A DNA stretch of 64,000 nt. Source: Pseudomonas phage NH-4. Below the pieces are notes generated by a model. It was given only the letters and a program-made list of their open reading frames with translations, searched no databases and was not told where the DNA came from. Within the stretch, counting starts at the first letter, position 1, and each line of letters starts with the position of its first letter. Below, piece by piece: positions 58,895 through 59,206 of this stretch. The stretch lies in the sequence record JN254800.1; one strand, 5' to 3'. Position numbers and translations under genes: made by a program.

Positions 58895-59120
58895 AGCTGG
58901 ACATATTTCTAACATTCGATTTAACACTCAATCCAAACACTCACCACCATCGTCTCCCACCAACAGCCGACTCGACCCTCACCCACCAGCAGACCGCCCA
59001 TATAACATCCTATAACACCACCTAACACTCATTCACCATCAAACCCACCCAGACCTACAGCCCACCCACAAGCAGCCCATAGACGCGATCCCTGGCCCCA
59101 TAGTACAATCGCGCCATACT
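58895..59120 (+). repeat. Strongly G-depleted C/A-rich low-complexity tract upstream of the 59207 gene. The minus strand carries GGGTGGG...GGGTGGG G-quadruplex-type motifs.
   Basis: About 15 G in 180 nt versus roughly 58% genome GC. Imperfect AACACTCA and CACCCACMAGCAG repeats. Confidence 0.7.
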
Positions 59121-59206
59121 CAGTGTCGCGGCAGAGCACCAGGGGCCATCCGCCAACCAAGCCACCACGACGACTCCAGAATCGAACTCCAGGGACGCAG
59201 CAACAA

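Follow-up and report, generated by a model that had tools for sequence, protein, structure and literature searches.

Why should one strand of a phage genome be so depleted of guanine over 180 nucleotides (nt) upstream of a gene for the packaging machinery? The tract that raises this question occupies positions 58901-59080 of the 64,000-nt stretch of Pseudomonas phage NH-4 analyzed here (JN254800.1; hereafter the window), within a gap between a primase/helicase gene and terS, the gene for the small terminase. The original prediction, which drew on the letters of the sequence, took the DNA to be that of a phage, and rightly so: the window belongs to a PB1-like Pseudomonas aeruginosa myophage of the genus Pbunavirus. 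It suggested that the tract might be a translational enhancer, a G-quadruplex (G4) on the opposite strand, or a packaging or priming signal. We find it most likely that the tract tunes terminase expression, and the mechanism that we rank first, at a probability of about 0.3, is an RNA-level role in which the tract would be a Rho-loading, attenuating, and insulating segment of the transcript that begins at the promoter P040. The promoters of this region, the position of the packaging (pac) cut, and the identity of TerS have been published previously for relatives; in the literature that we searched, we found no description of the tract or of the mirrored composition that accompanies it across the family.

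The depletion is plain from base counts and from a 180-nt sliding-window scan of the 64 kb, both of which bear out the G-depleted, C/A-rich tract that had been described. The tract holds 60 A, 78 C, 12 G, and 30 T, or 6.7% G against 27.7% across the window; the earlier estimate of about 15 G captured the depletion but not the exact count. No other 180-nt window among the 64,000 bases has so few G (z of about -5.2; mean 49.8 G, standard deviation 7.2), and the runner-up among non-overlapping windows holds 25 G. GC skew, for which a sliding-window calculation had been proposed, reaches its window-wide minimum in the tract, at -0.73. Over the full interval 58895-59206 the G content is 14.4%, and the non-coding span, put at about 970 bp, measures 969 bp (58238-59206). 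The tract does not lie immediately upstream of the gene at 59207, as had been stated, because 126 nt separate its 3' end from the terS start codon; in the other direction, it begins 295 bp from the pac cut (58605/58606).

The imperfect CA-rich repeats quoted in the original prediction are present in the sequence (repeat families D3, D6, and D9), and all repeats within the tract are short and imperfect, for which reason tandem or direct repeats were rejected as the cause of the skew. Autocorrelation of C in the tract shows neither a 3-nt nor a 10-11-nt periodicity. A mutational skew arising from replication or transcription was also rejected, because the skew is local, extreme, and opposite in sign to the expected leading-strand and non-template bias. 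A permissive E-value scan of 57500-60500 against Rfam gave chance-level matches only, none of them in the tract.

About 290 Pbunavirus records match the gap as a whole, with identities of 80-100%, and the tract has a 100% identical counterpart in vB_PaeM_1384. Our alignment comprises 17 relatives, of which phiFenriz is unusable for the tract and excluded from the conservation profile because 51 nt of adapter replace part of it: in this record (KT254133.1 59297-59347; positions 947-997 of our locus L016), the Illumina TruSeq adapter AGATCGGAAGAGCGTCGTGTAGGGAAAGAGTGTAGATCTCGGTGGTCGCCG stands in place of the phage sequence at window positions 58996-59046. The search for the tract in related phages, which had been suggested as a check, found G depletion retained in all 16 usable relatives (5.6-10.2% G; C/G ratio 4.3-8.0). 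The original prediction overlooked that the tract is composite and that a mapped promoter adjoins it. A moderately conserved first part is followed by a length-variable repeat zone (58943-58998), in which tandem duplications and deletions distinguish the relatives (+39 in E217, +36, +33, and -12, with a further +12 at 58932) and A/G changes are frequent, yet which stays C-rich and G-poor throughout. The remainder is a near-invariant block in which three copies of TAACAY recur at an exact spacing of 10 nt (59003-59028), an arrangement with one match in the window against zero expected; five of the 25 plus-strand copies of TAACA in the 64 kb fall inside the tract.

The same composition can be traced into phages whose DNA in this region cannot be aligned with the window. 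A protein search identified TerS homologues of 43-56% identity on nine further contigs, and a search of IMG/VR for close relatives with TerS returned Pbunaviruses only. At six of the nine distant loci, terS is preceded by a gap of 700-1000 bp without a called gene; a small ORF (open reading frame) of 76 amino acids is called in the gap of L029, and the contigs of L026 and L028 start partway through the gap, where on one of the two a called ORF extends to the contig end. Wherever flanking sequence is available, RepB-primase and VapE-helicase genes precede the gap (PF16793 RepB_primase and PF05272 VapE-like_dom in the syntenic genes). Within these unalignable gaps a three-part composition recurs, G/T-rich on the left, AT-rich in the center, and C/A-rich and G-poor on the right. 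Measured as 78-nt C>G bubbles in nine lineages (the window and eight distinct distant lineages), the terS leader is the largest plus-strand bubble of its locus in seven of nine, and on the minus strand the left arm ranks first in all seven lineages where it is available. The short motifs that survive at this distance include a repeated (T)CGCGGCA. A TAGAC-N17/18-TATAMT promoter just upstream of terS is also found in L010, L013, and L026, and TAACAC repeats are shared by L010 and L026, with TAACACC(R)CCTAACA in L010; L013 keeps the promoter but not the CA-rich tract. Because the composition is kept despite substitutions and indels, and in unalignable lineages as well, selection seems to act on the composition of a single strand, and since strand composition is conserved without sequence, what matters would be a single-stranded nucleic acid, either RNA or single-stranded DNA (ssDNA).

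The start of terS varies among these relatives. In L029 (2983-3003), its ATG lies 6 nt after a perfect TATAAT, suggesting a leaderless terS mRNA, and most other relatives have only a weak GG-containing element resembling a Shine-Dalgarno (SD) sequence 10-14 nt upstream.

In the window, the tract appears to be transcribed on the plus strand as an untranslated leader. The original prediction had envisaged such a leader, and homology to a mapped transcript of phage 14-1, TU045, bears it out; 14-1 is 97.8% identical to the window over 58850-59206, and its positions were transferred by alignment. ONT-cappable-seq of 14-1 (bioRxiv supplement) identified two plus-strand promoters of the sigma70 class in the gap, P040 and P041, and showed that TU045 extends from P040 to 60626, through the end of terS. 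P040 is located in the AT-rich pac core. P041 is the sole consensus promoter in our scan, coincides with a mapped 14-1 transcription start site (TSS), and is invariant in the conservation profile. The tract spans +194 to +373 of the 499-nt terS leader that begins at P040 and -215 to -36 of P041, whose mRNA is a short terS transcript with a 91-nt leader that does not contain the tract. In the 14-1 transcriptome tables, neither a minus-strand TSS nor a termination site falls in the gap. The longest read-through from the 14-1 minus-strand promoter P043 is antisense to all of terS and ends at about 59137 (14-1 59828), some 57 nt short of the G-rich, minus-strand side of the tract. In phage PBJ (L021, OR611941.1), a 16-nt tandem duplication of CCATAGTACAATCGCG after window position 59097 doubles the P041 -10 region.

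As RNA, the tract is essentially free of structure, with a minimum free energy (MFE) of -1.1 kcal/mol over 180 nt, in agreement with the unstructured leader proposed for it. Of all 78-nt windows on the plus strand of the 64 kb, the two with the highest C-minus-G values fall within the tract (36 C/3 G and 35 C/5 G), and the C>G bubble at 58854-59364 is the largest of that strand (434 window starts; area 9372 %.bp; maximum %C-%G of 42). The tract contains 44 YC dimers, compared with a genome mean of 26 (standard deviation 5.4), and from 58916 onward an uninterrupted chain of 14 at the (YC)N9-13 spacing. Directly 3' of this unstructured RNA, a GC-rich hairpin that could form only in the long leader is predicted at 59090-59148; it is without covariation support because the region is almost invariant. 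Published descriptors of Rho utilization (rut) sites call for a C>G bubble of at least about 78-80 nt, little structure, [(YC)N9-13]n with n of at least 4, and a hairpin within about 150 nt. The tract shows this bubble length, a G-poor unstructured RNA, the YC spacing, and the predicted downstream hairpin, and a hairpin within 150 nt of the tract is the layout that RhoTermPredict seeks. In the work of Nadiras (2018), Rho termination in vitro was reported for every template tested whose bubble exceeded 78 bp in length or 700 in area.

It is therefore to the extreme match with published rut descriptors, together with a rationale in TerS dosage, that the Rho reading owes its first rank. Overexpression of TerS lowers the infectivity of E217 (review PMC9611059), so an attenuating leader makes sense. 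We infer Rho binding, termination, and a regulatory purpose from the composition, structure, conservation, and position of the tract. The naked C-rich RNA of the P040 transcript would serve as a Rho-loading platform of the rut type; Rho would engage these transcripts and terminate a part of them near the GC-rich hairpin and P041; and this partial termination would both restrict the expression of terS and insulate it, so that TerS would come mainly from the short P041 transcript, under separate control.

Several observations weigh against this reading. Mildly so, ONT-cappable-seq of 14-1 detected no termination site in the leader, in a data set where time points are pooled and for a process whose ends are heterogeneous, and full-length P040 transcripts (TU045) in 14-1 do reach the end of terS. 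A rut site defined by composition cannot account for the near-invariance of 58999-59080 or for the exact phasing of TAACAY; this invariant 3' third probably carries a second, sequence-specific function that the Rho model leaves unexplained. The mirror-image left arm has no mapped leftward transcript on which Rho could act. The rut descriptors were all derived from Escherichia coli and Salmonella rather than from Pseudomonas Rho. Finally, a long frame is open over two thirds of the tract in some relatives, and if it were translated, ribosomes would shield the RNA.

Table 1. Features of the primase-terS gap and its flanks (window coordinates)
Feature	Position	Strand	Basis
Upstream gene, primase/helicase (VapE-like)	56498..58237	+	ORF; relatives annotate as DNA primase
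Left arm, G/T-rich and C-poor, compositional mirror of the tract	58298..58480	+	Lowest-C and most positive-skew window
AT-rich near-invariant core with pac cut 58605/58606 inside AATCGATT	58590..58660		0-1 variable columns per 20 nt
Promoter P040	58659..58708	+	TSS ~58708 (14-1 59399), sigma70 class; starts long terS mRNA with 499-nt leader
Tract part 1, moderately conserved; TAACAYTC-like motifs at 58910, 58922, 58935	58901..58942	+	Alignment and conservation profile
Tract part 2, hypervariable C-rich zone	58943..58998	+	Highest variability in the right half of the gap
Tract part 3, near-invariant CA-rich block running into P041	58999..59080	+	1-3 variable columns per 20 nt
Best G4 candidate, GGGTGGG-N10-GGGTGGG	59044..59067	-	Found only with loops up to 12 nt
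Promoter P041: TAGACG 59080-59085, 18-nt spacer, TACAAT 59104-59109	59067..59116	+	TSS ~59116 (14-1 59807), sigma70 class
Predicted GC-rich hairpin (CCCUGG...CCAGGG)	59090..59148	+	MFE and centroid folds of 532-nt leader
terS, small terminase, 190 amino acids	59207..59779	+	Near-identical to PDB 7UXE, E = 6e-125

Among the alternatives, the one that survives best, though we still consider it unlikely, places the function in double-stranded DNA. The tract could be a terminase-recognition arm to the right of the pac cut, a counterpart of lambda cosB or SPP1 pacR, which TerS alone or together with TerL would bind or wrap before rightward packaging. The cut is mapped at 58605/6 by two routes. Nucleotide 1 of Ab27 and Ab28 aligns to window position 58605, and Essoh et al. 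(2015) set nucleotide 1 of Ab27, Ab28, and Ab29 at a "single fixed termination" of reads; Ipoutcha et al. placed the putative pac site of JG024 at 59,376, which is window position 58606, and reported an XbaI pac fragment of about 15 kb. From the cut, the nearest XbaI site is 15,157 bp away rightward (wrapping the genome) and 20,428 bp away leftward; the first rightward site matches the JG024 fragment, and packaging therefore runs rightward, through the tract and terS. Headful, circularly permuted genomes whose pac site lies in AT-rich DNA have been described by other groups as well. The order of cut, tract, and terS mirrors that of cosN, cosB, and Nu1, the TAACAY triplet in the invariant block has a 10-bp spacing that corresponds to one helical turn, and the long gap upstream of terS recurs in the distant relatives, at six of nine loci without a called gene. 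In the other balance, TerS of E217 (PDB 7UXE, an entry with 10 chains) is without appreciable DNA binding in vitro (summary in review PMC9611059), the cut and the tract are nearly 300 bp apart, and phages with near-identical TerS differ by -12 to +39 bp in the spacing of the two TAACAY clusters. Moreover, it is the composition of the strand, not its sequence, that the family conserves, and proteins do not usually read double-stranded DNA in that way. As for the packaging signal put forward in the original prediction, some link to packaging is plausible, given a mapped cut 295 nt upstream and terS as the following gene.

Some sequence records break within the gap. A physical genome end inside the tract was considered since the phiFenriz and FBPa14 records break there, the latter (ON375839.1) opening at window position 58986/58987; because the experimentally supported end is 58605/6, we judged that these breaks arose in assembly, in a zone of low complexity that is prone to repeats. 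L026 and L028, metagenomic contigs from distant relatives, start 453 and 581 nt upstream of their own terS. Assemblies tend to break in this gap, whether at a repeat-prone low-complexity zone or near a physical pac end.

A second DNA-level explanation, doubtful to a greater degree, treats the tract as half of a deeply conserved, mirror-symmetric module that functions as ssDNA and is centered on the AT-rich core, a combined origin of replication and pac element. The two arms would make the strand that runs 5' to 3' away from the center G-poor and unstructured and its complement G/T-rich, which could aid loading and priming by the adjacent RepB-type primase and VapE-like helicase; alternatively, G/T-rich 3' tails at the pac break could favor RecA loading or give Chi-like protection. 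The G/T-rich 3' strands beside the core may, in short, recruit helicase, primase, or RecA, or blunt RecBCD. The appeal of this explanation is that it accounts for both arms at once. The largest C>G bubbles of the two strands in the 64 kb flank the core in mirror orientation, the left arm lying within that of the minus strand (57990-58615), and the lineage counts given above reproduce this arrangement at other loci; the synteny of RepB primase, VapE helicase, gap, and terS is conserved; the authors of the SCUT-S1 study raised the possibility that replication originates in the AT-rich pac region; and the core has a 67%-identical paralogue elsewhere in the window. Set against these points, no origin has been mapped in Pbunavirus, and the cumulative GC-skew minima of the Banzai paper fall at 42,280 and 52,360 (in Banzai coordinates). 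A skew of this sign runs counter to the usual G excess of leading strands, the skew of the right arm runs to the terS ATG and into the gene, which fits a property of mRNA better, and that of the left arm, whose sequence is poorly conserved (13-17 variable columns per 20 nt), may partly extend an upstream coding-strand bias. We encountered no description of a joint origin/pac element for Pbunavirus and its relatives in the literature searched.

The paralogue just mentioned pairs 58476-58753 with 12659-12961. A flanking inverted repeat of the pac core reads AAGCCTACTGCCGCG ... CGCGGCA(C/G)TA(A/G)GCTT, and the second copy of the module sits upstream of a structural-gene promoter (14-1 P014; window TSS at about 13102). 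A second origin and a shared regulatory site are both possibilities for the duplication. The octamer TCGCGGCA occurs on the plus strand at 58714, 58765, 58809, 59126, and 12922 and on the minus strand at 12710 and 58528; five of the nine plus-strand copies in the 64 kb thus fall in the two modules, the gap and its paralogue. It lies just downstream of both mapped TSSs (+6 of P040 and +10 of P041), and the gaps of distant relatives are filled with similar TGCGGCA/CGCGGCA repeats, which makes it a candidate protein-binding site. Repeats of GTAATTTGG at 58343, 58509, 58674, and 58682, with a variant at 58866 and an inverted copy at 58483-58495, are spaced by about 165 bp across the gap, and the last two of the four copies overlap P040.

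Two further proposals, on a level with each other and each improbable, would assign the tract to the expression of terS by other means. According to the first, the invariant block (-117 to -36) would be an upstream control region of P041, with TAACAY bound by a host or phage transcription factor that times terS. The block is contiguous with the invariant core promoter, whose -35 element (TAGACG) is imperfect and whose spacer is 18 nt, the TAACAY repeats are phased at 10 bp, and a P041-like promoter after CA-rich DNA with TAACAC recurs in L010 and L026. In 14-1, however, P041 falls into the ordinary sigma70 class, the TAACA repeats stand at different distances from the -35 element in the window and in L010, and L013 keeps the promoter without the CA-rich tract. 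Such a control region would also leave unexplained the 100 nt of variable G-poor sequence upstream of the block and the G-poor leader downstream.

According to the second, the CA-rich, unstructured leader would be a standby or S1-binding platform for ribosomes that offsets the weak and distant SD of terS. The gene has only GGGA, ending about 11 nt before its ATG, a good SD is lacking in most relatives too, the tract is unstructured, and the G-poor, CA-rich composition extends to the ATG. Yet the extreme tract stops 126 nt upstream of that codon, a stable hairpin is predicted to separate the two in the long leader, and the proximal 91-nt leader fits the idea better than the tract does. Because the tract is absent from the P041 mRNA (TSS at about 59116) and remote from the start codon, a classical CA-rich enhancer at the ribosome-binding site, as first proposed, is unlikely.

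It is less probable still that the tract is, or descends from, coding sequence, in which case its 5' two thirds would encode the Pro/Ser/Thr-rich C terminus of an ORF under weak constraint (phrog_18478), which extends over the whole gap in some Pbunaviruses and is in decay in others, this phage among them. The plus-strand frame at about 58300-59015, ending with TAA at 59013-59015, is open for 221-240 codons in 7 of the 17 relatives, longer than composition-preserving block shuffles allow (P <= 0.0007). This frame matches phrog_18478, every large indel in the tract has a length divisible by 3, and omega is estimated at about 0.6-0.7 for the frame, as against about 1 for the remaining two frames in the left arm. 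However, one to three stops cut the frame in 10 of the 17 relatives, a count that includes the window (TAA 58692 and TAG 58761), variation has no codon-position periodicity (55/58/56), and no long ORF occurs in the gap of any distant relative examined. Both the pac cut and a mapped promoter would fall inside the ORF, G depletion in the tract extends 65 nt beyond the ORF's stop codon, and sequence poor in T and G is naturally poor in stop codons. Searches with the frame gave no match in Pfam and, in PHROGs, only the family of these same auto-annotated ORFs. We therefore rejected the coding reading for this window, and retain a weakly constrained ORF as a possibility for some relatives. In this phage the tract appears to be non-coding; as the original prediction held, no plausible ORF covers it.

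As for the complementary strand, the G-runs noted there are present, GGGTGGG-N10-GGGTGGG at 59044-59067 and GGTGGGTGAGGG at 58975-58986, although with a central loop of 10 nt the former is not the canonical G4 that it had been called, and no canonical motif (four runs of at least three G, loops of 1-7 nt) occurs on either strand of the window. Motifs of this kind, with two 1-nt loops, can tolerate a long central loop. The suggested check with a G4 predictor has a borderline outcome: in a 25-nt window, G4Hunter scores 1.56 at 59043-59068, which passes the threshold of 1.5, and 1.36 at 58974-59001, but 1.56 is one of seven regions at or above 1.5 in the window, and the top score, 2.16, lies elsewhere. 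With loops of up to 12 nt allowed, 8 of the 17 relatives have the four-run motif and the other 9 lack it; it is broken in 14-1 (at the third G-run), PA01, zikora, PaMx13, Ab28, Wadjak4, and others, and G depletion is kept in all usable relatives, which argues that G4 formation is probably not the selected property. With no minus-strand TSS mapped in the gap, and the longest antisense read ending before the tract, a minus-strand G4 in DNA or antisense RNA that acts as a regulatory, packaging, or priming signal is the least probable of these explanations, and very improbable. A reading of the tract as an Hfq/Crc CA motif was rejected, as the motif AAnAAnAA, with 20 matches in the window, has none in 58036-60334, an interval that includes the leader (58708-59206).

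Our findings bear on the practical use of these phages. Pbunaviruses are among the phages most used in P. aeruginosa therapy and are now being rebuilt synthetically, and the 969-bp gap between the primase gene and terS, which holds the pac cut, both terS promoters, and the tract, matters to genome redesign, linearization, and refactoring. If the tract is a Rho attenuator, a lytic phage would be using host Rho to set the dose of TerS, an excess of which is toxic to the phage, and the length or G content of the tract would be a handle for tuning packaging. If its role is instead at the level of DNA, the tract would help to define how pac is recognized by a TerS that binds DNA poorly in vitro. 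Either way, composition that is conserved without sequence could serve as a marker for the pac/terS control region in uncultured relatives.

Comparison with known systems sharpens these distinctions. G-quadruplex regulatory motifs share with the complementary strand its G3 runs and a G4Hunter score above 1.5 at one spot, and differ in that the candidate here has a 10-nt central loop, is unconserved among close relatives, and lies on a strand without a mapped transcript. The Hfq/Crc CA motifs of Pseudomonas (decoys of the CrcZ type) resemble the tract in their Pseudomonas context and as A+C-rich RNA, but the tract is C-rich and lacks A-rich ARN repeats. CA-rich translational enhancers and standby sites likewise involve a CA-rich, unstructured leader and a gene with a weak SD; here, the tract is far from the start codon, with a predicted hairpin between, and is missing from the short isoform. 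Lambda cosB, between cosN and Nu1, and the SPP1 pacL-pacC-pacR region, at the start of gene 1, lie like the tract between a cut and a small-terminase gene. Regions of the cosB/pacR type also share with it their position on the first-packaged end, short direct repeats, and overlap with terminase-gene promoters, whereas the tract stands 295 bp from the cut, at a spacing that varies among phages with the same TerS, and conserves composition rather than sequence.

The closest likeness is to the rutA/rutB sites of lambda tR1 and to the enterobacterial mgtA, corA, and rho leaders, which are similarly C-rich, G-poor, and unstructured, with densely spaced YC dimers, and, as Rho-dependent leader attenuators, similarly precede a pause-prone hairpin in the leader of a dosage-sensitive gene. 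Rho dependence of the tract is a prediction, and the 14-1 leader is without reported 3' ends. The tract also departs from such leaders in being partly sequence-invariant with phased repeats, and in lying between two promoters and beside a pac site; compared with a minimal 78-nt rut site, it is two to three times longer and far more skewed. On present analysis, then, the tract may be filed most economically as a new and unusually extreme C>G rut-like leader.

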